Below, piece by piece: positions 3,725 through 60,584 of a DNA stretch of 64,000 nt. The first letter of the stretch is position 1, and the number at the start of each line of letters is the position of its first letter. The stretch is from a bacterium (GTDB lineage Bacteria > Patescibacteriota > Minisyncoccia > Moranbacterales > DUUL01). Under the pieces are notes generated by a model. The model did no database searches, was not told the DNA's origin, and was given only the letters and a program-made list of their open reading frames with translations. Both the position numbers and the translations under genes were made by a program. Location: NCBI GenBank assembly GCA_018675685.1, contig JABGXP010000010.1, forward strand, positions 49,427-113,426, read 5' to 3'.

Positions 3725-4924
3725 ATGGAAAAGAAATTTCCTAAGGATTTTCTTTGGGGCGTTGCACATGCATCTCATCAGGTTGAAGGGAATAGCAAAG
3801 GAAATGATTGGTGGGATTGGGAACAGCAAGGAAAAACGAAAGAATCTTCGGGTTGGGCTTGTGACAGCTGGAATCGCTATCCGATTGATAATAAATTAGC
3901 ACAAGAGCTTGGTTGTGATGCTTTTAGAATTTCTTTTGAATGGTTTCGTATTGAGCCCAAAAAAGGAAAATTTTCAAAGGATGGGATTGAGCATTACCGG
4001 AAGAATTTGCAAGACATGAAGAAGCGAGGCTTGAAAAGAGTTGTAACTTTGTGGCACTGGACCTCTCCAATGTGGTTTGTTGAAGATGGCGGTTGGCATA
4101 GCGAGCATTCAGTAGAACATTTTACGAGCTATTGCTCGAAAATCATAGAAGAACTTGGAGACGAGATTGATATGTTCATTACAATAAATGAACCAAGATT
4201 GCCATTGAACAGAGGTTATTTAAAAGGCGATTTTCCTCCAGGAAAAAGAAATCCCAAAGATTTTTTGAAAGCTAGGAAGAATATGATCAAGGCGCACCGG
4301 GAGTGCTATGATATTTGCAAGAAAAAGCAACCGAAAATTCCAGTAGGGATAACTCAGTTTTGCAATGTGTTTGAATATACAAATCCAAAATCATTTTTAT
4401 GGAGTTTTATAAAAAAAATGCAGAGAAAATACAATTGGTATTTCCAGGATCAAATCAAAGATAAACAAGATTTTGTGGGAATCAATTATTATTTTGGCAT
4501 GGACATCTCTTTACTACCTCCTTTTGCTAAAATGAAAAATGACGAAAAGAAGCTAACAGAAATGGGTTGGGGAGTGTATCCAAATGGACTTTTTGAGTTA
4601 CTCATTTCTGCCTGGGGAAGATACAAAAAGCCAGTATATATCTTTGAGAATGGAATTTCAGACGAAAAAGACACACGAAGGGCTCAATATATCAAAGTTC
4701 ACACAGAAGCTGTTCGCGATGCCATTGCTCAAGGCGCTAATGTGAAAGGATATTTCTATTGGTCGTTACTGGATAATTTTGAGTGGCTTTTAGGTTATTC
4801 TAGAAAGTTCGGTCTATGTGAAATTGACAAAGAGACCATGGATCGGATTCCGAGGAAGTCATATTTTGAGTATCAAAAATTGATTGCTGGCTATAAAGGT
4901 AAGTCCCAAAAGAAGAGAGGATAA
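3725..4924 (+). CDS. Glycoside hydrolase family 1 (beta-glucosidase-like)
   Basis: GH1 acid/base motif ITINEPR and nucleophile motif YIFENG. Also the N-terminal pattern FLWGVAHASHQVEG. Length 399 aa. Confidence 0.8.
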   Translation: MEKKFPKDFLWGVAHASHQVEGNSKGNDWWDWEQQGKTKESSGWACDSWNRYPIDNKLAQELGCDAFRISFEWFRIEPKKGKFSKDGIEHYRKNLQDMKKRGLKRVVTLWHWTSPMWFVEDGGWHSEHSVEHFTSYCSKIIEELGDEIDMFITINEPRLPLNRGYLKGDFPPGKRNPKDFLKARKNMIKAHRECYDICKKKQPKIPVGITQFCNVFEYTNPKSFLWSFIKKMQRKYNWYFQDQIKDKQDFVGINYYFGMDISLLPPFAKMKNDEKKLTEMGWGVYPNGLFELLISAWGRYKKPVYIFENGISDEKDTRRAQYIKVHTEAVRDAIAQGANVKGYFYWSLLDNFEWLLGYSRKFGLCEIDKETMDRIPRKSYFEYQKLIAGYKGKSQKKRG

Positions 4925-4943
4925 TATTAAAAACTGAAAAACG

Positions 4944-5870
4944 ATGAATTGGATTATGTTGGCAATCAGTGCCTATCTATTGCTTTCTATTGAATCAATT
5001 GCAAATAAGTTTTTGATTTCAGGAAAAGTTGGAAGTTGGCGCCTATATTTATTCTATATTGGGCTTCTTTCGTCCACCAGTTTAATGTTTGCTCCCTTTG
5101 GTTTGTACTGGCCAGGTTGGCATGTTGTGGGAATTTCCGTTGCAACAGGAGTTGTCTTTTTTGGATACCTAGCCTTTCTATTCTCTTCTCTGAAGAGTTC
5201 AACAGCCACTAGAGTTTTTGTTTTGATCGGTGCCGTTGCAACAATCACAACCTTTATTTTCTCAAAATTGTTCTTAAATGATAACCTGACTAGTAGCAGT
5301 TTATTCGGAGTGATAATGTTACTGTTGGGAGGTTTTTTTATAGCCTTTAAAGTTAAGGAAAAGAAGTTTTTTACAGATTACAAAAAAGTCCTTATTGCAG
5401 GTGTTTTATCTGGAGTTTCCCTGGGTATGTTGAAATATACTTTTGATATTTTCCAAGGACTTGGTGGAACAGATTTCGAAGTTTTTGTGAACGGGTATAT
5501 TTACACAAGAATGGGCTCCGTTTTAATGGTGATTGTTCTTATGTGTTTACCTTCGTATCGTAATCATATTTTGGCAACGTTTAAAAAGAAGAAAGGAAGG
5601 GAACATGCTTCAAATTTCCTAATTGTTGTAGGAGTGAAAACATTATCAGGGATTGCCACATTTATGATGAATTTCAGTCTTTCTATTGGCGACCCAACAA
5701 TTGTAAGTGCCCTAGCATCAGTTCAGTATCTCGGAGTTTTTATACTATCAATGTTTCTATCAAAAAGGTTTACTGCTATTTTCAAAGAGAATTTCGAGAG
5801 AAAAGACATGCTTTTTAAGGCCACAGGAGTGCTATTTGTTGTTTTGGGTATCATAGCTGTCTTTGTTTAG
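4944..5870 (+). CDS. Polytopic membrane protein (DMT/EamA-like?)
   Basis: 308 aa with about 9-10 hydrophobic helices. The family assignment is weak. Confidence 0.35.
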   Translation: MNWIMLAISAYLLLSIESIANKFLISGKVGSWRLYLFYIGLLSSTSLMFAPFGLYWPGWHVVGISVATGVVFFGYLAFLFSSLKSSTATRVFVLIGAVATITTFIFSKLFLNDNLTSSSLFGVIMLLLGGFFIAFKVKEKKFFTDYKKVLIAGVLSGVSLGMLKYTFDIFQGLGGTDFEVFVNGYIYTRMGSVLMVIVLMCLPSYRNHILATFKKKKGREHASNFLIVVGVKTLSGIATFMMNFSLSIGDPTIVSALASVQYLGVFILSMFLSKRFTAIFKENFERKDMLFKATGVLFVVLGIIAVFV

Positions 5871-8359: not shown

Positions 8360-9490
8360 TTAGGTTTTTTCATTCATCAATTTGCTAAAGTTGATAGTCA
8401 CGTCATTGATCCATCTTCCAGCATTTGGGTCTTTGCTACAAGCTGAGCCACATTTCCATAAGACCATCTCTTGAGGGGTGTCTACATCAATTTTCACAAG
8501 TCTCTCAAGTCTGCCACCGACAGTGTCAATTGCATCTTGTGGACCATCAAAACAAGTATGTCCCCCTGTTCCCATTTTCTTTCTTATCCCGCGATATCCC
8601 CAATAGTTATAACAATTCTTCCCATTAAGAACTGGTACATGTCTTCCAAAACCACTTTCTTTCATTGCAATTCCAACAAGAAAAGCTGCTACAGTCCGAT
8701 CTTTCTTAGCGATTAGTGGAGCCATTTCTTCCATAGGGTTTCCTTTTAGAATCTCATAAATTTCACCTTCCAGCTCTTCTGTTTTTATGGTGTCAAAACG
8801 CTTCAGTGCATCTAGCACGAAAGCATCCAGTTTTTGATCAAATTGTTGTGCGATTTTTTCATCTTTCGCTCCAAGCACTTTAGTCTGAGCTTGTACAGTC
8901 GTTTCTGCTTGTTTAAGATGCAAATCAGCCAATTCTTCTGTAGTAGTGTTGTTTTTTTGGTAGCCAACAGTGAATGTAGCAACACTAGTAACAAGAATTG
9001 TTAGTACTAATGCAGTTGCAAAAGATTTTGTTCTGAGAAAAGACATTTGCCAATCAAAGCCCCAAAAAGAGACAGGAGTTTCTCTTGGGTCAAGCTCGCA
9101 CTCCAAGGGACTTTTGAAGGAGGTGTTCAAGAATGGAAGATCGCGGACATATTTCTTCGAATAGTTCAGTTGAAATTCTGGCGAGCAATCCATTTTTTCA
9201 AAATGCTTGGTAGGAGAAATTTCATCAATAAAGTTAACCTTTCTCACCTCAAGTGCTGTCCAACAACCTTTTTTGATTGCGATTCTTTTTGTTTGACTAA
9301 CATAGTTTTTGTTTACTCCATCAACAAAAAAATCTCTCTTGAATTTTGACAAGAAGATTGTTTCTCCCAGGACCCCACTTTTTAGTTGTTTGATCTTTTC
9401 TTGAGCTCTTTTTGGATCATCAAACAGAAACCTAAAGTCCGGTTTGTTATATTTGTCCGTTATGCAATATAAGGACTTTTTTACTTTCAT
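8360..9490 (-). CDS. Membrane-anchored protein with C-terminal GH73-like (glucosaminidase/lysozyme-like) 4-Cys domain, paralog 1
   Basis: C-terminal block PMEEMAPLIAKKDRTVAAFLVGIAMKESGFG...NCYNYWGYRG...GGHTCF...WKCGSAC...RWINDV is shared with ORFs 9627..10388 and 30461..31081. The ESGFG and NYWGYRG blocks resemble glucosaminidase AQAALESGWG and NNLFGIK. There is a TM helix mid-protein. Confidence 0.5.
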   Translation of the reverse strand: MKVKKSLYCITDKYNKPDFRFLFDDPKRAQEKIKQLKSGVLGETIFLSKFKRDFFVDGVNKNYVSQTKRIAIKKGCWTALEVRKVNFIDEISPTKHFEKMDCSPEFQLNYSKKYVRDLPFLNTSFKSPLECELDPRETPVSFWGFDWQMSFLRTKSFATALVLTILVTSVATFTVGYQKNNTTTEELADLHLKQAETTVQAQTKVLGAKDEKIAQQFDQKLDAFVLDALKRFDTIKTEELEGEIYEILKGNPMEEMAPLIAKKDRTVAAFLVGIAMKESGFGRHVPVLNGKNCYNYWGYRGIRKKMGTGGHTCFDGPQDAIDTVGGRLERLVKIDVDTPQEMVLWKCGSACSKDPNAGRWINDVTINFSKLMNEKT

Positions 9491-10703: not shown

Positions 10704-10887
10704 GGGTAGCAATGAAGTAGCTTATTTTTAGCAAAAAATAAGTGTAGCGAATGCCGATGGATGCGATTAGCATTCAGCGCTACCCTGGACAAGGAGCGAC
10801 AGCGACGCGAGAAAATGCATGAAATTGAGATGCTGATTTTGAAAAAGCCGAAGAAAGAGAAATCGAATGAGCAGTAATAAAATAAAA

Positions 10888-11011
10888 CACCCATTTAAAT
10901 GGCTATTTAATTTTATTTAATTTTCCAAAAAAGTTCTAGCACCCTCTACTCAACGGAGCAAATACTTCTAAATGCCTTTTTGAGGGCATTTTCAGGTGGT
11001 TAACGTTGACT
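10888..11011 (+). promoter_or_regulatory. Operator-like palindrome ACCCATTTAAATGGCT plus conserved box AGGTGGTTAACGTTGACT upstream of ORF 11081, copy 1
   Basis: Near-perfect 16-bp palindrome at 10888..10904. The AGGTGGTTAACGTTGACT box at 10995..11011 contains a TTGACT -35. Both pieces recur at 11821..11860. Confidence 0.45.
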
Positions 11012-11080: not shown

Positions 11081-11398
11081 ATGAAAATATCACAAGTTTA
11101 CAGATTGTTATTCCATGTAGGTGGAGCATTTAATTTCCTTGATAGAGATTTTTTGCCTGATCTTGCAGAAATCGACAAACAATACATTTTGGATATGACC
11201 GAAGTGGTGAAGAAAGCTGTTGGTAGCAAATATGGTGAAATCACAAATGATTCTATTTTGAAAAAGGTTTTCCCTGGGAATTTAGAACTAAAGGAAAATG
11301 CTGAGATGCTACACACCAAGTATCTTCAATGGTTAGAAACTTCAAAATATCCAGGCTTATATCGTGACATAAAAAATGACCCTGGCGTTTATGCTTAA
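11081..11398 (+). CDS. Hypothetical protein (105 aa)
   Basis: Strong SD (CAGGAGGAAG) 8 nt upstream of the ATG. No recognisable family. Confidence 0.5.
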   Translation: MKISQVYRLLFHVGGAFNFLDRDFLPDLAEIDKQYILDMTEVVKKAVGSKYGEITNDSILKKVFPGNLELKENAEMLHTKYLQWLETSKYPGLYRDIKNDPGVYA

Positions 11399-11764: not shown

Positions 11765-11820
11765 CTTTAAATTAAAACAGCGTTTCAAATATCTTCTGGC
11801 AGGGAGGATTGTAATAAAAT

Positions 11821-11883
11821 ACCCATTTAAATGGGTGTTTTTAGGCGGTTAACATTGACTTTCATTGCATTTTGAGGTAGAAT
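11821..11883 (+). promoter_or_regulatory. Copy 2 of palindrome ACCCATTTAAATGGGT plus AGGCGGTTAACATTGACT box, with promoter TTGACT-N17-TAGAAT for the GNAT gene
   Basis: Perfect 16-bp palindrome at 11821..11836. Conserved box at 11843..11860 whose TTGACT serves as the -35. -10 TAGAAT at 11878..11883. Confidence 0.5.
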
Positions 11884-11934: not shown

Positions 11935-12666
11935 ATGGACAAAAAAGCGGTAACCTTAAAAGTTGGTGAAAATATCATTCTCAAAACCTTCACCCCCCAA
12001 GATGCACCAACAATTTTTGCTTTGATTGATTCCTGTCGAGAACACCTGAACCGAAACAATGAGAATACGGCGAAGAAATATCCTGATCTTGAATCGTTCA
12101 TTGAAAGCATCGTTTCTCCGAAAAAAACAAAGCGTTTACGTTTTGGAATTTGGGACAATGATGTTTTTGTCGGAAGTGTCAACATCGAAGGTAAGGGCAA
12201 TGGAAAAGCGGAACTGGGATACTGGGTTGGAGAGCAGTATCTAGGCAAGGGTTATGCGGGCACGGCTTCGTATAGATTGATTCAGTCCACTTTCAAGGGC
12301 GGTAGAATCAAACTTATCATTGCCAAGGTAGCCGAAACCAATGAGTACAGCTTTCGAATTATTGAAAAACTGGGCTTCTTTCTTGATGAGAAGAAAGAAG
12401 GAGAGCGTATCTACCATTTAGAAAGATGGCTTCCTTTCTATGTCAATGCCTGTCTTTTCTTCGGTGCTGTTGAGAATAGAGTTGAATGGGAGAAGGCTAA
12501 AAGCAACTATCCCAAAAATCCAAACTATCTACTCGACATGAGATTGAGCGAACTAACTTTGCAAGATGATCCCATGCCTGATTTTGGCGAAGGTGTCAGG
12601 TATACCGGCATCACGCTAAGAGACTGGATGACAATGAAAAATTTGGATCCAAACCAAGTCGACTGA
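11935..12666 (+). CDS. GNAT-family N-acetyltransferase (RimJ/RimL-like) with a ~75-aa C-terminal extension
   Basis: GNAT motif A: GYWVGEQYLGKGYAGTA. An SD (GAGGAG) precedes the ATG at 11935. The ORF track extended the start to 11905. Confidence 0.75.
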   Translation: MDKKAVTLKVGENIILKTFTPQDAPTIFALIDSCREHLNRNNENTAKKYPDLESFIESIVSPKKTKRLRFGIWDNDVFVGSVNIEGKGNGKAELGYWVGEQYLGKGYAGTASYRLIQSTFKGGRIKLIIAKVAETNEYSFRIIEKLGFFLDEKKEGERIYHLERWLPFYVNACLFFGAVENRVEWEKAKSNYPKNPNYLLDMRLSELTLQDDPMPDFGEGVRYTGITLRDWMTMKNLDPNQVD

Positions 12667-22750: not shown

Positions 22751-23128
22751 ATGCTTAGAATTAAGAAATTTTTTTACAAAAATAAAGCACTGGCTGACCT
22801 AGTCAGGAAAAGCACAGTGGTTTTAGTAGTTTTTTATTTAGGTTGTTTTGCTGTTGAATCAATCCTTCCAGGAGTTGTCATGGAAGCTTTCAACTTTAAT
22901 ATATTATTGTTTTTGATTGTGGCAATGATAGCAAGTATAACTTTCTCAGAAAAGGAAAGCGATGTTATAGTGTTTAAAAAAACACAAAAATATCTTTTTG
23001 TGTTCCTACTAATTTTATTTTTAGGCACTCTCTTTATTGTTTTGTATAGAGTTTCTTTGGTAGAAGCAATGGTCTACTTGGTGGCTTGTTTTGTGCTCTT
23101 TGGACCTTTAAAAAAACTATTTGAATAG
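22751..23128 (+). CDS. Hypothetical small membrane protein
   Basis: 125 aa with 3-4 TM helices. Confidence 0.35.
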   Translation: MLRIKKFFYKNKALADLVRKSTVVLVVFYLGCFAVESILPGVVMEAFNFNILLFLIVAMIASITFSEKESDVIVFKKTQKYLFVFLLILFLGTLFIVLYRVSLVEAMVYLVACFVLFGPLKKLFE

Positions 23129-23201
23129 CTACCTGTTAGCATTGTTGAAAAATTCAAAGAAAAGGCTTGACAAGAAAAATAGTTTAGGGTAGACTATCAT
23201 A

Positions 23202-23302
23202 ATATTTTATTTTCAAATGTTAGCACTACACCGCTTATGATCTTGGCAAGGTAACTCCCTCCTATCCCTTGCCAATGATTCATTAGCGGTGTAGTGTTTT
23301 TT
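23202..23302 (+). ncRNA. Candidate small structured RNA, or an unusually long nested terminator
   Basis: Promoter-like TTGACA (23166..23171) - N17 - TAGACT. Then a 12-bp outer stem CACTACACCGCT/AGCGGTGTAGTG (23223..23295) enclosing an inner stem TTGGCAAGG/CCTTGCCAA with the loop UAACUCCCUCCUAUC. Then six T residues. Confidence 0.3.
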
Positions 23303-23323
23303 ATTTGAAAGAATATTTTGTGC

Positions 23324-23905
23324 TCAATTAAAATTGCTCATTGTTTTTTCTAGCCCATCTTCCAAGAAACTTTCGATACATTCACGAGCGGAGGCGATTA
23401 CTTTTTCCAACTCAACTGTTTCTTCTGAGGAAAACTTTCCAAGTACAAATTTTTCAGTCGGGATTTTTTGTCTTGAAAGCCCTGTTGAAATTCCAATTCT
23501 CAATCTTGTAAAATCTTTAGAGTGTAGATGTTCGATGATCGAACCAATCCCATTATGTCCACCAGAGGTAGAGTTTTTAGATAAACGAATTTGTCCAAAA
23601 GGTAAATCAATATCATCATGAACAACAAGCAGATCATCTGCTTGTATATTCAGATATTTCATTGCAGCCACGGTTGGTTCCCCAGAGAGATTCATGAAGG
23701 ACATTGGTTTCATGAGGTGAATTTTTTCTTCCACTAAAATTGTTGCAAGTTCACCATTTATTTTTTTGTTGAAAGCAAAAGGAGTAACAGAGGGCAAGTT
23801 TAGATTTTCCAGCAATGAGTCTAACACCATAAACCCAATATTATGTCTGGTTTTTTTGTATTTATCACCTGGATTGCCGAGGCCTATAATTAGAAAGTTT
23901 TTCAT
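23324..23905 (-). CDS. pth: Peptidyl-tRNA hydrolase
   Basis: LIIGLGNPGDKYKKTRHNIGF and the catalytic His region. Length 193 aa. Confidence 0.95.
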   Translation of the reverse strand: MKNFLIIGLGNPGDKYKKTRHNIGFMVLDSLLENLNLPSVTPFAFNKKINGELATILVEEKIHLMKPMSFMNLSGEPTVAAMKYLNIQADDLLVVHDDIDLPFGQIRLSKNSTSGGHNGIGSIIEHLHSKDFTRLRIGISTGLSRQKIPTEKFVLGKFSSEETVELEKVIASARECIESFLEDGLEKTMSNFN

Positions 23906-31616: not shown

Positions 31617-31734
31617 AAAAGGTTATTATTTTATTATTAATGATTTATTTTTGAAATGAAAAATGCACTACCTCGTCAATACGCGGTAGTCCATTTCTGG
31701 TCGCTCCTCGGCGACGATCTAAGAAAGTATCCGA

Positions 31735-31854
31735 CTAATTGGCTTTTTGGACGTGGCCGTTACCTGTTGCATAGGCATTCATATCGGCATTAAATGTGTC
31801 CTGTGTACCTGCAGCTGCTGTAGCTGTAATTGGTGGTCCGTAGCGCATCTTCAT
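31735..31854 (-). CDS. Small ORF, 39 aa (MKMRYGPPITATAAAGTQDTFNADMNAYATGNGHVQKAN), not in the ORF track
   Basis: SD GGGAGGT 6-7 nt upstream. Its own promoter TTGACA-N18-TATAAT is at 31989..31960 on the minus strand. A ~100-nt leader precedes it. GC-richer codons than the background. A hairpin plus T-run terminator follows at ~31700..31660. Confidence 0.35.
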   Translation of the reverse strand: MKMRYGPPITATAAAGTQDTFNADMNAYATGNGHVQKAN

Positions 31855-31959
31855 GGGTAACCTCCCGTGGGTTAATTTGAATTTTGGCTAAAAGCCGTCG
31901 ATAAATTATGTAGACCAATCAAGCGTGAAAAGCTCGATAAGCCTAGGGAACTGTTTAGT

Positions 31960-31989
31960 ATTATAAAACAAGGGAATCGCTATTGTCAA
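31960..31989 (-). promoter_or_regulatory. Canonical sigma70-type promoter (TTGACA-N18-TATAAT) for the 39-aa ORF
   Basis: Read on the minus strand: TTGACA ATAGCGATTCCCTTGTTT TATAAT. Confidence 0.5.
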
Positions 31990-32016
31990 ATATTAATTTA
32001 ATTTTTGGTTATTTTT

Positions 32017-32056
32017 AATAAAAAAGCAGGCCCAGCTCGAAAATTCGAGTTGGGCC
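32017..32056 (-). terminator. Intrinsic terminator for the 60-aa ORF
   Basis: Hairpin GGCCCAGCTCG-AAAATT-CGAGTTGGGCC (one G-U pair) followed on the minus strand by a T-run. A second small hairpin GGGGTCCTTTACCCC sits at 32068..32082. Confidence 0.6.
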
Positions 32057-32094
32057 TGACATTTTGTGGGGTCCTTTACCCCAAAGCCGGCTTG

Positions 32095-32277
32095 TTATCC
32101 ACAAATCATGATTCCCATTGCACCGTCTGCTGAGACATCGTCCGCAACCATAGTAGAATGGCTGACAATGCAGGTGGTCACCACATTTCCGAGATCATCT
32201 GATTTTCCTGTGGCTGTGCCCAGTGAGCTGTAAGTGGCATTGATATTGCCAGAGTTAAGGTTGGTAAACTTGTTCAT
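32095..32277 (-). CDS. Small ORF, 60 aa (MNKFTNLNSGNINATYSSLGTATGKSDDLGNVVTTCIVSHSTMVADDVSADGAMGIMICG)
   Basis: Strong SD TAGGAGGAAGGAGC 4-6 nt upstream of the ATG at 32277. A promoter TTGACA-N18-TAAAAT is at 32428..32399 (minus). A ~125-nt leader precedes it. GC-richer than background. The ORF track's 97-aa version starts upstream with no SD. Confidence 0.4.
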   Translation of the reverse strand: MNKFTNLNSGNINATYSSLGTATGKSDDLGNVVTTCIVSHSTMVADDVSADGAMGIMICG

Positions 32278-32398
32278 AAGCTCCTTCCTCCTACTGTGAG
32301 TGAAATACATGTGGTTTTTAGGCCACGGCTTTAGTAAAGTACTGCTTTGTCGGGTTTTTCCGATGCTACGAATGCGCTTTTGACGCAAGATTACTCTT

Positions 32399-32428
32399 AT
32401 TTTAAAACAAGTAGGGCATGCTTGTCAA
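32399..32428 (-). promoter_or_regulatory. Sigma70-type promoter (TTGACA-N18-TAAAAT) for the 60-aa ORF
   Basis: Read on the minus strand: TTGACA AGCATGCCCTACTTGTTT TAAAAT. Confidence 0.45.
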
Positions 32429-32534
32429 ATATCCAAACAACCCAAGGCATCATTTTGTTAATAGTAACCTTACTTTTCTCAAGGAAGTTTGTTATAATTG
32501 AAATGTAATTTTTCAAATAATAAAAACAAGGAGA

Positions 32535-34967: not shown

Positions 34968-35127
34968 AGTAAATATAACTTTCTTTCAAATACGCCACAA
35001 GACAAAAGCTTATCTGAAGATAGATTTTTATTTTTATTATTTTTTTATTAAGTAATATAACTATAACATATACAGGAGATTTTCAGAAGACATTTATTTT
35101 TTAAAACATTGCTTTTTGTGGGTAGGT

Positions 35128-35190
35128 ATGAGATATTTGTTGGAAGGCTAAAAAATATAGTCTTTTGTAGTACGTTGAAATCTATTGTGA
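35128..35190 (+). promoter_or_regulatory. Conserved ~60-bp leader element, copy A (upstream of purL)
   Basis: ATGAGATATTTGTTGGAAGGCTAAAAAATATAGTCTTTTGTAGTACGTTGAAATC is about 75% identical to 38737..38795. Confidence 0.5.
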
Positions 35191-35262
35191 AAAATTTATA
35201 GTTAGAATATGGAAATATTCTATTAACCTAAGTATAACTCAAACCTGCAAGGAGGTTACAAG

Positions 35263-38001
35263 ATGATCTATTCGATCGCTGTACGGCCTAAAGAAAAAAA
35301 TGGGTCGGTTATCAAGGTCTATTATCTGGAAATTTCTAAGGAAAATCCGGACATTGATCTTCTGGCTAACACTTTGTTCCATAATCCGTTGACTGAGGAG
35401 CTGGTACCGGAACTGCCACAAGAAAACATCACAATTGTGATGCGCAACAATGCAGTTTTGGATTCTGCTCAGAAGTCAATCATCGACGGTTGTCGAAGGC
35501 TCGGTGTGGAAGTGGAAGCAGCCAAAGTAGCTCATTGCTACATTGGCGAAGTACCCGCTTCAGTTTTTATTAACCCTTTGATTCATGTGAAATATCATGA
35601 AGTGCCTCAACTGGAAACCCTGAAACCACGCGGTTCCAAGGTTCCCATGGAAGTTGTTGATTTGCGTGAGTATGACGATAAAGGACTTATGCAGATGAGC
35701 GAAGATCGGGATTTGAGTCTATCTTTGAAACAGATGAGAGAGTTGGTTTTGATTCAGATGGATTTGGAACAAGGCCCGGTTTCAGATGTATTCCTGGATA
35801 TTTTCGCGGCCCGCTGGTCAGATCACTGTTGTCACACTACTTGGCTATCCTGTGGATTGCTAAATATGCTCAAGAGAGCAACTGAAGTCATTGCCAATCC
35901 CAATCTCGTATCAGCCTATTATGATAATGCTGGTGGTTGGGCTTTCTATGACAATCTAGTGCTCTGTATTTCAATCGAAACTCATAACAGTCCGACAGGA
36001 AAAGAACCTTATGGCGGACAAATCACTAAACTACTCGGGAATATCCGTGATATTTTCGAATTTGCCTTAGGTGCCAAGCCGATTGGCTCCCTGGAATTGA
36101 CAGTTCTGGGTGAATTAGCCCGGAAAAAATTTCCTGAAATTGCTGGATTCACTCTTGATGCTGATATTGTTGCAAGGGAAACTATTCGGGCTATTGCTGA
36201 TGCCGGAGACCCCATGGGGATTCCGATGATGCTGGCCTCGATGGATTCCCATCCTGGTTATTCCGGAAAACCCTTCGCTTTGGGCGGAAATGTCGGAATT
36301 ACAAGGAAGGAAGTGGCTCAAAAAGGAGTTCCAAGAATTGGCGATTGGGCTGTAGTCCTTAACTGGACTGGTAATGATGGCTATCACGGTGCGACAGTTA
36401 GTTCTGGTGGTTTAACCGAAAAGACTGACACTGGCGATGCCAACCATGTTCAGATGGGGGATACCTTTCCACAACAGAAGTTGATGAGAGCTCGACTGGA
36501 ACTTCGTGATAATGACTGTTTGAGTGCCGGGAATGATTTCGGTGCCGCCGGATTTACTTCCTTTATGGAAATAGCCGAAGCCACTAAGCGTGGAGTCGGA
36601 TATGCTGGCGGGGTCAAACTGAATTTTGGCTGGGTTCCGACGAAATGTGTCGGTATTCCTGACAAAATTATTGCTGTTGGCGAAAGTCAGGAACGTTTCG
36701 GACACGTTGTGAAACCGGAGAAATTGGAAGAAGCCATGGCCATCTACGAAAAATATGAATTGATGGCGACTGTGGTTGGAATTTTCACTGGTAATAATCG
36801 GGTTCAGATTTTTAATGATCCCGATGCTACTAAACTAACTGTAGAGTCACCATTAACGGGGGTTGTCTCTTTTGACGTCCCCTACGAAATGTTTGATCGT
36901 TGTCCTTTGCCGACTGCTAAGCCGGTAGCTCCTCCGACGCTTTCTCCTCAGATTGTATTTCCTAAAATTGAGAAAAAGAACGTGGAAGAGTTAGCCATTC
37001 AGGTTGTAGGCAGTTTTGCCTTGGCTAATCAAGCTTGGGCTACCACCCAGTATGATTCAACAGTTCAGGGTATTACTAAACAAGGTCCGTTATACGGGAA
37101 GAATTACAATATCCCGAGTTCCTTGGCAGTACTTAAGCCAGTTGAAGATAAGAACTGGGGTGTGACTTTCAGTTCCAGTTTTGCTCCTTGGCAGTTTGAT
37201 GTTGATCCTGTTGCGGCAGCTTTCAATGCCGTAGCAGACGCTGTAATAAAACAGATTGTGGCCGGTGTAAGCATGGAAGACATTTGTCTGGCCGATAATT
37301 TTTACACCCCAGATAAAGACCCTTATGCTTTATGGTATCTATGTGAGCAGGTTAAACTGCTAGCAGAAACATCCGTTGCATTTGGGGCTCCCTTTATTAC
37401 CGGTAAGGATAGTTCTCATGGCTCAGGTGAATATAATGGCACCATTGTCAATGTTCCTCCTGGGGTCTGTGTCTCAGCGCTAGGGAAGGTTCCTGATTTT
37501 CATAAAATCACACCTCATCTCTGGAGCTCTCCTGGTAACAAATTGTATTCCATTGGTTATCAAACTAAAACCCTTAAGGGTTCGATTCTGGCTTCTGAGC
37601 TAGACTTGATCGAACGAGATCAGATTGACACTATGACAATTGGTCAGGGGGCTCGATTTTTGAAAGAGCTCGAAGTTTTTACGCAGGCTGGGCATTTTGC
37701 TTCAGCTGTGCCGGTTAACCGTGGTGGTTTGATCCAGAAATTGTTTGAAGGAGTCCAAGCTTCCGGATTTGGTGTGAAAACCGATCTAGTGGAAGAACTT
37801 TTTCCGGAAAGCTTTGGTTCAGTGCTGGTGGAAGTTTCACCCAAGATTTCAGGATTAGTGGAAGGTTATTTCAACGGCGAAATAGAATTGGTCGGTGAAA
37901 TTACCGCTACACCTGAAATAGCAGTGCAAGGAACAAACCTTGATATGAATAAACTCTTCAATGCCTGGAATAGTGGCTTTACAAGAAAGGTGGTGGTTTA
38001 A
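35263..38001 (+). CDS. purL: Phosphoribosylformylglycinamidine synthase PurL with an N-terminal PurS-like extension
   Basis: ETHNSPTGKEPYGGQITKLLGNIRDIFEFALGAKPIG matches the PurL ETHNHP...EPY..A.TG.GG.IRD pattern. Two PurM-like halves. 912 aa. Strong SD AAGGAGG. Confidence 0.85.
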   Translation: MIYSIAVRPKEKNGSVIKVYYLEISKENPDIDLLANTLFHNPLTEELVPELPQENITIVMRNNAVLDSAQKSIIDGCRRLGVEVEAAKVAHCYIGEVPASVFINPLIHVKYHEVPQLETLKPRGSKVPMEVVDLREYDDKGLMQMSEDRDLSLSLKQMRELVLIQMDLEQGPVSDVFLDIFAARWSDHCCHTTWLSCGLLNMLKRATEVIANPNLVSAYYDNAGGWAFYDNLVLCISIETHNSPTGKEPYGGQITKLLGNIRDIFEFALGAKPIGSLELTVLGELARKKFPEIAGFTLDADIVARETIRAIADAGDPMGIPMMLASMDSHPGYSGKPFALGGNVGITRKEVAQKGVPRIGDWAVVLNWTGNDGYHGATVSSGGLTEKTDTGDANHVQMGDTFPQQKLMRARLELRDNDCLSAGNDFGAAGFTSFMEIAEATKRGVGYAGGVKLNFGWVPTKCVGIPDKIIAVGESQERFGHVVKPEKLEEAMAIYEKYELMATVVGIFTGNNRVQIFNDPDATKLTVESPLTGVVSFDVPYEMFDRCPLPTAKPVAPPTLSPQIVFPKIEKKNVEELAIQVVGSFALANQAWATTQYDSTVQGITKQGPLYGKNYNIPSSLAVLKPVEDKNWGVTFSSSFAPWQFDVDPVAAAFNAVADAVIKQIVAGVSMEDICLADNFYTPDKDPYALWYLCEQVKLLAETSVAFGAPFITGKDSSHGSGEYNGTIVNVPPGVCVSALGKVPDFHKITPHLWSSPGNKLYSIGYQTKTLKGSILASELDLIERDQIDTMTIGQGARFLKELEVFTQAGHFASAVPVNRGGLIQKLFEGVQASGFGVKTDLVEELFPESFGSVLVEVSPKISGLVEGYFNGEIELVGEITATPEIAVQGTNLDMNKLFNAWNSGFTRKVVV

Positions 38002-38640
38002 ATGAAAAAAGTATTTGTCATTTATTGGCCGGGAATCAATTGTGAGGAAGAAACAATGGCCGCTTTTCGGGCTGTTGGTGCTGATCCTCAGTTGGTTTTT
38101 GTTCGGGATTTGATCTCCGGAAAAATCAAGATCACTGACTGTGATTTGATTTGTTTCCCAGGTGGATTTTCTTATGGTGATCACATTGACACTGGGATCG
38201 TTGCAGCTGTAATGATTCAGGAATTTATTCAGGCGCTCCTAGAGGCCAAAATCCCAGGGATTTTTATTTGCAATGGTTTCCAAATCGCAGTCAGAGCGGG
38301 AATCTTTGGTAATAACAACTTAGCCTTGGTTCAGAATGATTCAGGAGTTTTCTGTAGTCGTCCAGCCAAGCATTTTGTTGAGAAAAGTAACTGTCTTTGG
38401 ACAGCAGGATTGGAAGGAAGAACTCTTAAATTCCCTGCTGCTCATCATGCCGGTAAAGTCACCACTTTCGGCCATGTTAATCGTGTGATGCGCTATGAAG
38501 GGCTCTCTCCTAATGGAGGAGAAATAGCTGCTGTCACAAATCCGAATGGCACGCTCTTGGGCATTATGGACCATCCGGAGAGGCCGATAGGGAACAAGGA
38601 CGGTCTTGAGATTTTTCGCAACGGAATAAAAGCAGTTTGA
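38002..38640 (+). CDS. purQ: Phosphoribosylformylglycinamidine synthase glutamine amidotransferase subunit PurQ
   Basis: KVFVIYWPGINCEEE...CFPGGFSYGDHID, with the catalytic Cys in the ICNGFQ context. Start overlaps the purL stop. Confidence 0.85.
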   Translation: MKKVFVIYWPGINCEEETMAAFRAVGADPQLVFVRDLISGKIKITDCDLICFPGGFSYGDHIDTGIVAAVMIQEFIQALLEAKIPGIFICNGFQIAVRAGIFGNNNLALVQNDSGVFCSRPAKHFVEKSNCLWTAGLEGRTLKFPAAHHAGKVTTFGHVNRVMRYEGLSPNGGEIAAVTNPNGTLLGIMDHPERPIGNKDGLEIFRNGIKAV

Positions 38641-38659
38641 AAGGACTGCACGATACATA

Positions 38660-38700
38660 AAGGTATCTTTGGAAATTTTTCCAAAGATACCTTTTCTTTT
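38660..38700 (+). terminator. Intrinsic terminator after purQ
   Basis: AAGGTATCTTTGG-AAATTTTT-CCAAAGATACCTT plus a T-rich tail. Confidence 0.6.
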
Positions 38701-38736
38701 TAAGAATATTAAAATTGTTGCTTTTAGCTTTTAGAT

Positions 38737-38795
38737 ATGAGATATTAGTTGGAAGACTAAGAGTATTTTTTAGTAGTACATTACAATTAGAAACT
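38737..38795 (+). promoter_or_regulatory. Conserved ~60-bp leader element, copy B (upstream of the cdsA-like gene)
   Basis: ATGAGATATTAGTTGGAAGACTAAGAGTATTTTTTAGTAGTACATTACAATTAGAAACTG is similar to copy A. Confidence 0.5.
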
Positions 38796-38849
38796 GATTT
38801 TTAAAGGAAGATCAATAAAGACATCAATAGACTTTGAAAGGAGGAGTTT

Positions 38850-39503
38850 ATGGAAATTGCAACAAACAATCGTTTGAAGGGGGCAATTGGCAGATGGAAA
38901 TTGGCAATTTGGTTGCCAGTCATTTTGTTTTGTTATTATTATGAGCTTATGCCAATCTTTCTGTTTGTGGTTATTGTAGCAGGAATGTATGAGATTAGAA
39001 TTCGGAGCGTGTTTGTTACGAATTGGTCAGTCATAGCATATTTTCATCTTGCTGGATTGTGCTGGCTCTTTATTATGCCGGAAAAAGAAATCTGGTTTAT
39101 TGTTATGGTTGTTATTATCAACGATGCTTTCGCGTATTATGGGGGAAGTTTTCTGAACTTCGCGCGGTTTATGCGAATGAAGATTTCTACTGTAAGCCCA
39201 AATAAAACTCTAGGGGGACTGATATACGGAGTTTTTGGCGGTATTTTAATGGCAATTTTACTTTTCAAATTCTATGATTATCCACCAAGATATATCTGGT
39301 TTGCCTTTCTCTTGTGTTTGGCAGGTGATGTGGGAGATTTATTGGAAAGCGGATTTAAAAGATTCTGTGGTATTAAGGATTCTGGTGATGGTCTGTTTAC
39401 AAAAAGATTACTTTGTGGACATGGTGGCGTCTATGACAGGTTCGATGCCTTGGCGTTCGTATGCCACTACTGGATGATAATAACTCTTTTGAAGTTCAAC
39501 TAA
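38850..39503 (+). CDS. CdsA-family cytidylyltransferase (phosphatidate cytidylyltransferase-like), short form
   Basis: C-terminal signature SGFKRFCGIKDSGDGLFTKRLLCGHGGVYDRFDA matches the CdsA family pattern (S..KR....KD.G...P.HGG..DR.D). Strong SD GGAGGAG. Confidence 0.65.
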   Translation: MEIATNNRLKGAIGRWKLAIWLPVILFCYYYELMPIFLFVVIVAGMYEIRIRSVFVTNWSVIAYFHLAGLCWLFIMPEKEIWFIVMVVIINDAFAYYGGSFLNFARFMRMKISTVSPNKTLGGLIYGVFGGILMAILLFKFYDYPPRYIWFAFLLCLAGDVGDLLESGFKRFCGIKDSGDGLFTKRLLCGHGGVYDRFDALAFVCHYWMIITLLKFN

Positions 39504-39525
39504 ACAAACCTATGGAGGTGAGAAA

Positions 39526-40578
39526 ATGACAAAGAAAAAAGAAACGACCTACAAGGATGCTGGTGTGGATATTGACAAAGGAGATGAATTTGTCGATCTA
39601 ATCAAGGGAAAATTGGCCACAACATTTCCACTTCTTTCAACAGGAGAAGTTATCACAGAGCTTGGAGGTTTCAGCTCCTTAGTAGAATTGCCAGATGGTA
39701 GAATCATTGCTCTCACAACTGATGGTGTGGGAACAAAATTGATGATTGCAATTCTTTTGGATAGACACAACACTGTTGGTATTGATCTTGTCGCAATGTG
39801 CGTCAATGATTTAATCGTAGGCGGAGTTATGCCAGGTGTCTTTATTGACTATATGGCTTTAGGGAAGTTGTTTGTGGATAAAGCGGTTTCATTGGTTGAC
39901 GGCATGGTCGAGGGCTGTCGTCAGTCGCAATGCGCTATGATTGGTGGTGAAACAGCTGAATGTCCTGGACTGTATGGTCCTGAAGAATATGACCTAGCTG
40001 GATTTGCTGTTGGATTTGCCGATTCTCGCAAGAAATTGATTATGGGAGATAAAGTACGTCCAGGGATGCATGTCTATGGGCTTCCGTCTTCAGGCTTACA
40101 TTCCAATGCCTTCAGTCTAGTACGGAAGATTTTCGGTATTAACCTGGATACTCCAGTTGCCTCAATCAAAGCTTTAAATGAAGTGATTCCAGCACTGGGG
40201 CATAACATTACATTGGGAGAGGAGCTTCTTCGACCAACCAGAATCTATGTCCAAGAAGTTGCAAAATTGATGCAAAAATATACTATTGCTGGCATGGTGA
40301 ACGTCACAGGCGGTGGGTTGAAAGAAAATCCTCCACGCATAATGCCAGAGGATTGCTCAATGAATATTTATCTTGACACTTGGAAGCCACAGCCCATTTT
40401 CTCTTTGATTCAGAAACTGGGAAATGTTTCCCAAGCAGAAATGCTCAAGGCAACCAACTACGGCATCGGATATATGATTATTTCACCAGATGAAATAACT
40501 GATAGTGACATTGTCAAAATAGGTGAGATTGTCGAGTATGATGGTAAAAATGTTTTTTTTAAAGACAAAAAAGATTAA
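39526..40578 (+). CDS. purM: Phosphoribosylformylglycinamidine cyclo-ligase (AIR synthetase) PurM
   Basis: YKDAGVDIDKGDEFVDLIKG...TDGVGTKLMIAILLDRHNTVGIDLVAMCVNDLIVGG. SD GGAGGTGAG. Confidence 0.9.
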   Translation: MTKKKETTYKDAGVDIDKGDEFVDLIKGKLATTFPLLSTGEVITELGGFSSLVELPDGRIIALTTDGVGTKLMIAILLDRHNTVGIDLVAMCVNDLIVGGVMPGVFIDYMALGKLFVDKAVSLVDGMVEGCRQSQCAMIGGETAECPGLYGPEEYDLAGFAVGFADSRKKLIMGDKVRPGMHVYGLPSSGLHSNAFSLVRKIFGINLDTPVASIKALNEVIPALGHNITLGEELLRPTRIYVQEVAKLMQKYTIAGMVNVTGGGLKENPPRIMPEDCSMNIYLDTWKPQPIFSLIQKLGNVSQAEMLKATNYGIGYMIISPDEITDSDIVKIGEIVEYDGKNVFFKDKKD

Positions 40579-40601: not shown

Positions 40602-40632
40602 CCTCCGTAGCTCGAAATTCGAGTTACGGAGG
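40602..40632. terminator. Bidirectional terminator hairpin sharing a core with the 32029..32056 hairpin
   Basis: CCTCCGTAGCTCG-AAATT-CGAGTTACGGAGG. Same inner AGCTCG/CGAGTT with the same G-U wobble position as the hairpin at 32029..32056, different outer stem. Confidence 0.55.
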
Positions 40633-56227: not shown

Positions 56228-56427
56228 TCTTAGAGTATGATTCGAAAACATGGAGATGACCTATTTTTTATTGGGTCATCTTTTATTTTAGGGTAGAAAG
56301 ATGAAATATCGTTAATTGCGATGAAGAGATATGGGAAGCAGAAATAATTCACCAAGATTAATTGTCTTGGGTGTACCCATTATATTTAAAGGTGATTTGA
56401 TATCAAAGCTGTTGATTATTTTTTTCC

Positions 56428-56456
56428 TTGCAAAAAACTTCCTGCTCTAATACAAT
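56428..56456 (+). promoter_or_regulatory. Promoter TTGCAA-N17-TACAAT for murA; spacer conserved with the promoter at 60509..60537
   Basis: TTGCAAAAAACTTCCTGCTCTAATACAATG versus TTGCCAAAACAACCCAGCTTTAATACAATG. Confidence 0.5.
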
Positions 56457-56492
56457 GTATGTAGCACTTAAACGCTTAAATTAAGATAAAAA

Positions 56493-57794
56493 ATGCAAAA
56501 TTTTGAAATAAACGGAGGGAAAAAACTCCACGGAGAGATTGAGGTAAATGGTTCAAAGAATGCAACTGTGGCTATTTTGGCTGCCTCCGTTTTAAATGAA
56601 GGAATAACGACCTTAAGAAATGTTCCACAAATTGAAGAAGTAAATCGTTGGGTTGAAGTCTTGGAGAGTATCGGAATGCAAATTAAACGCAAGGGAAAAA
56701 CTTTGACTTTGAAAGCGCCGAAAACTATTGAGATTAAGAAGATAAACAGGGAAGCTGCAGAAAAAACTCGTAGCGCGATAATGTTAATGAGTTCTTTAGC
56801 TGGAAAATTTAGAAAATATTCCATCCCCCAAGCTGGTGGCTGTAAACTCGGAGCTCGAACTGTGAAGCCCCACCTTTTTGTATTGGAAAATTTTGGGATT
56901 AAAATTAAAGCAAAAGAAGACTGCTTTGAAGTTGACGCTGGAAAATTTAATAAAGCAGGCAAGGTAGTGCTTTACGAATCTGGCGATACCGTAACTGAAT
57001 CGGCCCTTATGGCGGCAGCTCAAATTCCAGAGGAAACAACAATTAAGATGGCAACCTCAAATTACATGGTTCAAGATCTTTGTTTTTTCTTAGAGAAATT
57101 GGGTGTTAAGATCAGTGGTATTGGTGGAACAACCTTAAAAGTAGAGGGTCTGAAAAAGATAAACAAAAATATTGTTTATGAGATTAGTGAAGATCCGATT
57201 GAGGCAATGTTTTTTATCTCTTTGGCTATTACAACAAAAAGCAAACTACTTGTTAAAAGGTGCCCGTTGGAATTTTTAGAGCTTGAATTGTTGAAATTAG
57301 AAAAGATGGGTCAGAAATATGTTGTTAAACAAGAGTATAAAGCTAAAAATGGGCATACTGATTTAGTGGATCTTGAAATCATTCCTTCTAAGCTAATAGC
57401 GTTAGAAGAAAAATTGCATGGACTACCTTTCCCTGGACTTAATATGGACAATCTTCCTTTTTTTGTTCCAATAGCAATGGTGGCTAAGGGAAAAACTTTA
57501 ATTCATGATTGGGTTTATGAGAACAGAGCTGTTTATTTTACTGAACTTAATAGGCTTGGTGCGAATATATCCCTCTTGGATCCGCATCGAGTTTATGTTG
57601 AAGGCCCGACCACTATTAGAAATGCCGAAATGATGTCACCACCAGCGCTCCGTCCAGCAGCAATAATTCTTGTTGCGATGTTAGCAGCAAAAGGAAGGTC
57701 AGTTTTAAGAGATGTGTATTCAATTAATCGTGGGTATGAAAATTTAGAAGAGAGACTGCAAAGCATAGGAGCTGATATCAAGAGTGTAATATAG
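56493..57794 (+). CDS. murA: UDP-N-acetylglucosamine 1-carboxyvinyltransferase MurA
   Basis: FEINGGKKLHGEIEVNGSKNATVAILAASVL. Two-domain EPT fold. 433 aa. Confidence 0.9.
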   Translation: MQNFEINGGKKLHGEIEVNGSKNATVAILAASVLNEGITTLRNVPQIEEVNRWVEVLESIGMQIKRKGKTLTLKAPKTIEIKKINREAAEKTRSAIMLMSSLAGKFRKYSIPQAGGCKLGARTVKPHLFVLENFGIKIKAKEDCFEVDAGKFNKAGKVVLYESGDTVTESALMAAAQIPEETTIKMATSNYMVQDLCFFLEKLGVKISGIGGTTLKVEGLKKINKNIVYEISEDPIEAMFFISLAITTKSKLLVKRCPLEFLELELLKLEKMGQKYVVKQEYKAKNGHTDLVDLEIIPSKLIALEEKLHGLPFPGLNMDNLPFFVPIAMVAKGKTLIHDWVYENRAVYFTELNRLGANISLLDPHRVYVEGPTTIRNAEMMSPPALRPAAIILVAMLAAKGRSVLRDVYSINRGYENLEERLQSIGADIKSVI

Positions 57795-60439: not shown

Positions 60440-60508
60440 TATTTGAGAACTATAAAAAAGGAGATAAAGCTCTTTCTGCAGATTGTGTGGAAGGAGTTTT
60501 TATTTTTT

Positions 60509-60537
60509 CTTGCCAAAACAACCCAGCTTTAATACAA
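60509..60537 (+). promoter_or_regulatory. Promoter TTGCCA-N17-TACAAT for the first GT4 gene
   Basis: Spacer conserved with the murA promoter at 56428..56456. Confidence 0.5.
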
Positions 60538-60584
60538 TGAAGCTAGCTTGTAAATAAACAGAGGATTTTAAAAAAGGAAAATAG

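Follow-up and report, generated by a model that had tools for sequence, protein, structure and literature searches.

A duplicated promoter-like cassette upstream of two purine biosynthesis units in a Moranbacteria-type genome

A short non-coding element occurs twice in the 64-kb stretch of bacterial DNA analyzed here (from contig JABGXP010000010.1; hereafter the window), once upstream of a purL-like–purQ unit (element A) and once upstream of a cdsA-like–purM unit (element B). The closest described systems are the PurR-type regulons, whose operators are the 16-bp palindrome of Escherichia coli PurR and the PurBox of Bacillus subtilis and Lactococcus. As in these regulons, A and B place one cis element at the promoters of separate purine units, overlapping or adjoining the promoter in a way that would permit a joint response; unlike PurR-type operators, they have no consensus match, dyad symmetry, candidate regulator gene, or conservation across related genomes. 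A further comparison is with promoter-proximal attenuators that lack an aptamer, such as the reiterative-transcription attenuator of B. subtilis pyrG and the PyrR-controlled pyr leaders. The pur leaders of related genomes, and A weakly, resemble these in having a hairpin ~5–25 nt from the predicted start followed by a U-run, a distance that leaves no room for a conventional aptamer; they differ in that the hairpins of the window are weak, B has no U-run, and there is no match to the PyrR site (RF00515) or another Rfam family. Purine, ZTP (pfl), and PRPP riboswitches are alike in position only, lying in the 5′ leaders of de novo purine genes, whereas A and B match none of them at E ≤ 10, contribute ~40 transcribed nt, and have no conserved or stable fold. 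Finally, 5′-terminal stabilizers such as the E. coli ompA 5′ hairpin and the Bacillus thuringiensis cryIIIA STAB-SD likewise combine a predicted hairpin at the transcript 5′ end with a purine-rich sequence resembling a Shine-Dalgarno (SD) site (GGAAGG in the window, GGAGG in relatives), but the resemblance is purely positional, and conservation between A and B reaches into untranscribed promoter DNA.

Patescibacteria are for the most part regarded as lacking de novo nucleotide synthesis (PMC11665869). The window represents a Moranbacteria-type genome in which purLQ and purM units stand behind duplicated promoter–leader cassettes, and its relatives repeat the pairing with different sequence. 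To our knowledge, next to nothing is known of gene regulation in Patescibacteria; A, B, and their counterparts in relatives offer a handle on promoter structure and regulon organization in the group in the form of short, defined, testable DNA fragments.

Extent and anatomy of the duplicated element

The duplication is real and nonrandom. In a gapped alignment, A (35100–35182, 5′ of the purL-like gene; coordinates are those of the window, and features lie on the plus strand unless stated otherwise) and B (38709–38788, 5′ of the cdsA-like gene and purM) are identical in 59 of 83 aligned columns with a single 3-nt gap, and they contain an ungapped 52-nt repeat (35100–35151 versus 38709–38760) of 77% identity. 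Their local-alignment score of 51 compares with 22.8 ± 3.4 for shuffled sequences (z 8.3; 0 of 300 shuffles reach the score) and is the highest among 1482 intergenic-versus-intergenic comparisons in the window (mean 18.5, sd 3.7). A model built from both copies scores A at 79.4 bits and B at 65.2 bits, and the 25-mer core TATGAGATATTNGTTGGAAGNCTAA, with up to three mismatches allowed, has only two sites in the 64 kb, namely A and B (0 of 100 shuffles). An earlier note on this DNA had reported two strings as a duplicated ~60-bp leader element and named identity at the background level as grounds for giving up the idea; the identity found is far above background. Both strings begin where the note placed them, at 35128 and 38737, although the A string ends at ~35182 and not at 35190. 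The similarity is also wider than had been claimed, beginning ~28 nt 5′ of the note's start and taking in the octamer TTGCTTTT, which the note did not mention.

Both copies precede start codons with a strong SD sequence, as the note had said. Element A lies 81–135 nt upstream of the purL-like ATG (35263), which has its SD sequence AAGGAGG at 35249–35255, and B lies 55–113 nt upstream of the cdsA-like ATG (38850) and downstream of the purQ terminator. The similarity ends ~45 nt past the predicted start, so that the repeat is bounded like a regulatory cassette. The note's view of A and B as a cis-regulatory module common to two pur units was right in outline.

The order of parts is the same in both copies: an A/T-rich stretch (TTAAAA), the octamer TTGCTTTT, a diverged spacer, TGaGATATT, nGTTGGAAGnCTAA, ~10–13 poorly kept bases, and TTTnGTAGTACnTT. 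Together these contain a sigma-70-type promoter match, TTGCTT-N17-TGnGATATT, with an extended −10 and identical spacing in A and B. In A, the −35-like hexamer TTGCTT (35109–35114) lies inside the octamer, which A and B share without change with the purL leaders of two related loci (L004 and L005), and the extended −10 (TGaGATATT, 35129–35137) follows 17 nt past the −35, with the same sequence and spacing as in B. The −10 matches the consensus at four of six positions. The next block, GTTGGAAGgCTAA (35139–35151), covers the predicted start (~35143–35145) and the first transcribed bases and agrees with B at 12 of 13 positions; the conserved block over the predicted start has just two matches in the window. 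The alignment of A with B defines a second conserved block, TTTTGTAGTACGTT (35163–35176). In B, pattern matching places the −35-like hexamer at 38718–38723, the extended −10 at 38738–38746, and the start-site block GTTGGAAGaCTAA at 38748–38760 (predicted start ~38752–38754), and the alignment places the second block, TTTTAGTAGTACATT, at 38768–38782. Between the −35 and the TG, 5 of 14 spacer positions are identical, while the first ~40 transcribed nt common to A and B run from GTTGGAAGnCTAA to TTTnGTAGTACnTT.

No promoter-like match other than that of B fits entirely into the interval from the purQ terminator hairpin to the cdsA-like start; one other match in the region begins within the 3′ arm of the terminator. 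Canonical TTGACA-N17-TAnAAT promoters elsewhere in the window make a sigma-70 reading of A and B reasonable. The octamer TTGCTTTT is also found 17 nt ahead of a −10-like hexamer 5′ of purL in L004 and L005 (PurL 82–83% identical), which makes orthology of the promoter within the genus probable. Two other promoter signatures were tried and rejected. The two conserved blocks do not serve as the −35 and −10 of an extracytoplasmic function (ECF) or sigma-54 promoter, since the spacing between them differs by 3 nt in A and B, and TTG[ACG][CT]TTTT is not a pur-specific −35 signature (91 matches versus 65 expected, mostly in coding DNA).

The reading that we favor, with rather better than even confidence, is that A and B are paralogous copies of a lineage-specific promoter-plus-initial-leader cassette that coordinates purL-purQ with cdsA-like–purM. 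Each copy would supply a sigma-70-type extended −10 promoter (TTGCTT, 17 nt, TGnGATATT) and the first ~40 nt of the transcript (GGAAGRCUAA ... UUUNGUAGUACNUU). The two units would then be transcribed from equivalent promoters into mRNAs that open with the same 5′ sequence, so that any factor acting there would act on both units alike. A conserved 29-nt block, TAGnTATGAGATATTnGTTGGAAGnCTAA, spans the −10 element to ~+10, and conservation resumes at ~+25 to +35. Because this block exceeds the needs of RNA polymerase, we read it as the candidate operator of a putative repressor, overlapping the start site, with candidate operator bases that include GTTGGAAGNCTAA; analogy with PurR-type control suggests such a start-site-overlapping operator as the shared control site. 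By type, the A/B pair is ordinary, a promoter duplication in the style of a regulon and most likely no new riboswitch, although its sequence is undescribed and specific to this genome.

Pur leaders in related Moranbacteria

We compared the window with a related set of 12 loci (137 kb; 200 kb together with the window). A sequence-only covariance model of A and B, run over the 200 kb at E ≤ 10, returned only A and B, and a scan of a metagenome collection for the 20-base core GAGATATTNGTTGGAAGNCTAA gave one match, a chance one within a coding gene of L012. The only other record that carries the element is L008, which has an identical PurL-like protein and an identical upstream region. In the nearest relatives (L004, L005, L009, L011, and L020; PurL 81–83% identical), the sequences upstream of purL or purN are unrelated to the element. 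Neither A nor B is significantly similar to any of 15 pur leaders of relatives, and the sole leader scores above z 3 (the B region versus L004, 4.4, and versus L017, 3.4) fall in the purQ-terminator part, outside the element. By eye, A had seemed homologous to the L004 and L005 purL leaders (hairpin, TTTTGT, TTGAAA, and TGTG), an idea that we dropped on local-alignment scores of z 1.0 and −0.5; the shared −35 octamer TTGCTTTT alone was retained from this comparison. The earlier note had proposed a motif travelling with an island and had named a lack of further copies and of conservation in related genomes as a result that would count against it. That is the result obtained, and the proposal is not upheld: on this sequence evidence, the specific A/B motif is confined to one genome or lineage. 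In other Moranbacteria, different sequences play the same role.

The usual order in relatives is purN-purL-purQ, a gap of 180–270 nt, and then purM or a divergent PurM-like gene. Three relatives show likeness between the upstream regions of their own pur units. In L017, ~200 nt 5′ of purL recur nearly unchanged 5′ of the purM-like unit (z 38); in L014, ~95 nt are common to the regions upstream of purN and purD (z 5.8); and in L009, the leader hairpins of purN and of the purM-like gene are alike (z 2.9). We take the L017 and L014 pairings as independent parallels to A and B. The L017 duplicates (4790–5003 and 8430–8636) precede purL in one case and a 73-amino-acid open reading frame plus the PurM-like gene in the other, and each contains a long inverted repeat (ACATTCTCACATTC ... 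GAATGTGAGAATG type), a TTGCCT-N17-TGaTAATAT promoter, a start-site hairpin, and an SD sequence.

Most pur units of relatives have a stable hairpin and U-run, with the hairpin starting 4–24 nt past a promoter-like −10, and these leaders fold with z ≤ −2.2 in 13 of 15 cases (full range −1.6 to −4.4). Many also carry an SD-like GGAGG box: the pattern GGAGG-N3-8-T5+ occurs at seven intergenic sites in the 200 kb, six of them in purN or purL leaders, and is absent from the pur leaders of the window. The window elements thus occupy the same position as the leaders of relatives, but without the GGAGG/U-run signature or a stable stem. In L009, L013, and L016, a hairpin ahead of purM lies 3′ of a separate purQ terminator and 32–37 nt from the start codon, and for this reason must be inside the transcript. 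L011, L014, and L020 have exact non-coding strings in common, namely GGAGGGTTTGTTTTT and, ahead of purM, the CCGGTCCCTGT hairpin, although the PurL of L014 is only ~52% identical to the window protein versus 81% for L011 and L020. Directly 5′ of the purM SD sequence, these three loci have the stem AACCGGTCCCTGT ... ACAGGGRCC (L011 4508–4545, L014 8468–8505, and L020 3673–3710), and the purQ–purM interval of L014 and L020 contains no other hairpin; L014 represents a much more distant lineage than L011 and L020.

The leader hairpins of relatives have no Rfam match, and Rfam searches of 8 related loci in gathering and permissive modes found nothing relevant. MAFFT and RNAalifold gave no consensus structure for these hairpins, whose 5′ arms do not align. 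Leader peptides beginning in the U-runs were considered and rejected, as their start codons and peptides are not conserved. In L004, the sequence 5′ of purM (12130–12260, minus strand) holds ~2.5 tandem copies of GTTGAAAAATGTCGCGATTAATG, which are promoter-like TTGAAA-N17-TACAAT units containing a TCGCGA palindrome. Genes for ECF-type sigma factors (Sigma70_r2/r4_2) lie within ~2 kb of purM in L014 (10110–10730) and L016 (10973–11611); none was seen near the pur genes of the window.

We entertain as a speculative and rather unlikely proposal that the pur units of Moranbacteria (purN/purL-purQ, purM, and purD) share an undescribed, promoter-proximal class of leader that acts as a purine-responsive attenuator. 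Such a class would consist of a GGAGG-box hairpin with a U-run within ~25 nt of the start, and in some genomes of the CCGGTCCCTGT hairpin before purM; it would work as a terminator-embedded aptamer or by binding a protein or the 30S subunit, and within each genome its copies at the different pur units would undergo concerted evolution. The A/B pair would then be a diverged member in which control had moved to the promoter/start-site block. Should the leader hairpins of relatives turn out to be regulatory, the group would have its first described purine-control element; otherwise, what is left is ordinary promoter duplication. The wider architecture of Moranbacteria pur leaders is the more interesting lead, beyond the A/B pair itself.

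RNA structure, known families, and competing explanations

Folding of the two elements gave weak structures. The A hairpin GGAAGGCUA/UAGUCUUUU (35142–35166; 9 bp with three G-U pairs, then G) is predicted at −6.8 kcal/mol (z −1.0) and is located where relatives have a stable hairpin and U-run. The B hairpin (38756–38774) is a marginal 7-bp A-U/G-U stem with no U-run after it, and the 53-nt segment folds at −5.5 kcal/mol (z 0.04). Neither hairpin is more stable than those of shuffles, the two occupy different alignment columns, and the predicted folds of the full 5′ untranslated regions do not surpass those of shuffles either (z −0.8 and −0.9). Compared with an intrinsic-terminator attenuator, A has only UUUU, partly within the stem, and B, with no U-tract, hardly qualifies. 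Rfam in gathering mode found only a tRNA in the whole window, and at E ≤ 10 no relevant family in either intergenic region, including the purine, ZTP, and PRPP riboswitches; the sole overlap with an element was a weak opposite-strand FsrA match over B (10 bits, E 9.8), with the remaining matches on the purQ terminator or the DNA upstream of A. The E. coli-type PurR palindrome ACGCAAACGTTTGCGT had no match in the window at up to three mismatches, and the PurBox AWWWCCGAACWWT, at up to one mismatch, had five (4.3 expected), all in coding DNA and none in A or B. The earlier note had judged that the element fits neither purine or ZTP riboswitches nor PurR boxes, which these null searches corroborate. 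It had also named a promoter–operator pair or an RNA leader as possibilities; the promoter half is supported by TTGCTT-N17-TGnGATATT, while the RNA leader is not supported, given hairpins that are unstable (z −1.0 and 0.0) and out of register and a transcribed part of ~40 nt. A TTGGAA-N-TTCCAA palindrome, found in the purQ terminator of the window, the L017 leader, and the L020 terminator, was discarded as a common operator because a tolerant search matches everywhere.

Several observations weigh against the coordinating cassette that we favor. The −35 matches the consensus at only three of six positions, and A has a better promoter match just downstream of the element, TTGAAA-N16-TATAGT (35175–35202; 10 of 12 consensus positions, no counterpart in B), so that in A the element could sit 5′ of the working promoter. 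The conserved block lacks dyad symmetry, and no candidate regulator gene was found near the pur genes. Clustering of mismatches between the copies is not distinguishable from a uniform 75% identity, and the longest exact run, 11, is by our estimate about that expected at uniform identity; the pair may be a fairly recent duplication without a special operator. Other look-alike pairs of promoter regions in the window (at 10.9/11.8 kb, 31.96/32.42 kb, and 56.4/60.5 kb) make the pur pair less special, and conservation of the element does not extend to the nearest relatives. Finally, that the promoter is active, where its transcripts start, and that a regulator exists are themselves predictions from the DNA.

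Control could instead act on the RNA, the transcribed half being a degenerate form of the Moranbacteria stem-loop/U-tract pur leader that sets read-through or mRNA stability as an attenuator, a terminator-embedded small aptamer, a protein-binding hairpin, or a 5′-terminal stabilizer. The relatives speak for this, in that their leaders fold better than shuffles (z ≤ −2.2 in 13 of 15), their hairpins begin 4–24 nt past the −10 and run into U-runs, the pre-purM hairpin of L009, L013, and L016 is inside the transcript, and six of seven GGAGG-N3-8-T5+ sites are in purN/purL leaders; the 9-bp hairpin of A is at the same relative position. The window itself fits poorly, with weak hairpins in different columns, no U-run after that of B, no GGAGG box or Rfam match, no significant similarity of either element to any leader of a relative, a conserved transcribed part of only ~40 nt, and the strongest conservation over the −10 and start site and not over a stem. 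We therefore regard control at the RNA level as possible but unlikely. More doubtful still is a neutral remnant, in which ~80 bp were recently copied by segmental duplication or gene conversion, the likeness of the copies is due to their young age and not to selection, and purL is transcribed from TTGAAA-N16-TATAGT. Its attractions are the better promoter match in A, the absence of the element from relatives at 81–83% PurL identity, a mismatch distribution indistinguishable from uniform, and the other look-alike promoter regions of the window, from which such duplications seem common. However, B has no alternative promoter after the strong terminator, so that at least B is probably functional; the boundaries of the similarity match the limits of promoter and leader; and pairing arose independently in L017 and L014, which is unlikely for something without function.

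The downstream promoter of A also allows the element to be an upstream activator-binding or UP-like module and not itself a promoter, since A would occupy approximately −35 to −105 if transcription began at the start predicted from TTGAAA-N16-TATAGT, and both copies have a TTAAAA stretch ahead of TTGCTT. Yet in B nothing downstream of the element qualifies as an acceptable promoter, and the distance from element to start codon differs (81 nt in A, 55 nt in B), which leaves this a very improbable account. To a small mobile or repetitive element, akin to miniature inverted-repeat transposable elements or repetitive extragenic palindromic sequences, we give almost no credence: A and B do form a dispersed direct repeat in intergenic DNA, but the 64 kb contain just these two, oriented alike and each placed immediately before a pur unit, with no terminal inverted repeats or target duplications and no copies in the 137 kb of related loci or the metagenome scan.

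Gene setting and other features of the window

The window is AT-rich (~36% G+C), and its pur stretch covers 35263–40578. The PurL-like gene (35263–38001; 912 amino acids) has Pfam AIRS/AIRS_C domains, an extra N-terminal region of ~160 residues, and a G+C content of ~0.45 versus ~0.36 for the window; its protein scores 292 bits against NCBIfam PurL, far under the cut-off of 648. Homologues form a clade of ~910-amino-acid proteins, the named ones mostly from Patescibacteria/Candidatus Moranbacteria, with identities of 81–83% for the nearest and 45–53% for the bulk, and the record of one close locus is titled "Patescibacteria group bacterium." One relative (L016) has a faint PurS match at the N terminus. 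The genes that flank the PurL-like gene vary in every relative examined, and the purLQ cassette is therefore not syntenic. A purQ-like glutamine amidotransferase gene (38002–38640; GATase_5 E 5e-31; NCBIfam PurQ 121 bits, cut-off 178) follows, with its intrinsic terminator at 38659–38694 (17-nt arms, 100% complementary, then TCTTTTT; −21.2 kcal/mol). The CdsA-like membrane protein (38850–39503; 217 amino acids) matches Pfam CTP_transf_1 at E 8e-25 and is far under the NCBIfam CdsA cut-off (51 bits versus 385), whereas the purM gene (39526–40578) encodes a bona fide PurM (TIGR00878, 339 bits, cut-off 236) and is followed by a terminator at 40602–40632 (14-bp stem with eight G-C pairs). The neighbors of the pur genes are ordinary housekeeping genes of the chromosome (clpB, an SPOUT methyltransferase gene, a glucan phosphorylase gene, pcrA/uvrD, a pgsA-like gene, pth, ksgA, and ruvB), for which reason the label "island" used in the earlier note is weak; the higher G+C of purL alone hints at anything unusual.

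Elsewhere in the window, a hairpin of ~30 pairs (23167–23315; −49.9 kcal/mol, z −11) has a 15-nt loop, UAACUCCCUCCUAUC, that resembles an anti-SD sequence. It lies between the convergent genes at 22751–23128 (plus strand) and pth (23324–23905, minus strand), with TTGACA-N17-TAGACT upstream and a U-run downstream, has no Rfam match, and may represent either a small RNA or a terminator acting in both directions. Pairing of its CU-rich loop with the GGAGG boxes was speculation only and was set aside, as the loop has no counterpart in the loci of relatives. The palindrome AAAAYACCCATTTAAATGGSTRTTT occurs twice (10880–11010 and 11812–11880), each time followed by GGTTAACRTTGACT and a −10 ahead of a gene (at 11081 and 11905), and is a second duplicated terminator/promoter module. 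Similar promoter regions (CTTGC-AAAA-AAC..GCT.TAATACAATG..TAGC) lie at 56416–56466 and 60500–60548, ahead of the genes at 56493 and 60585. Finally, the 918 nt at 31617–32534 (minus strand) have no large open reading frames and hold two small ones of 39 and 60 amino acids, each with a strong SD sequence and behind a similar promoter (ATATTTGACA..CTTGTTTTAWAATA), which may encode small secreted or precursor peptides.

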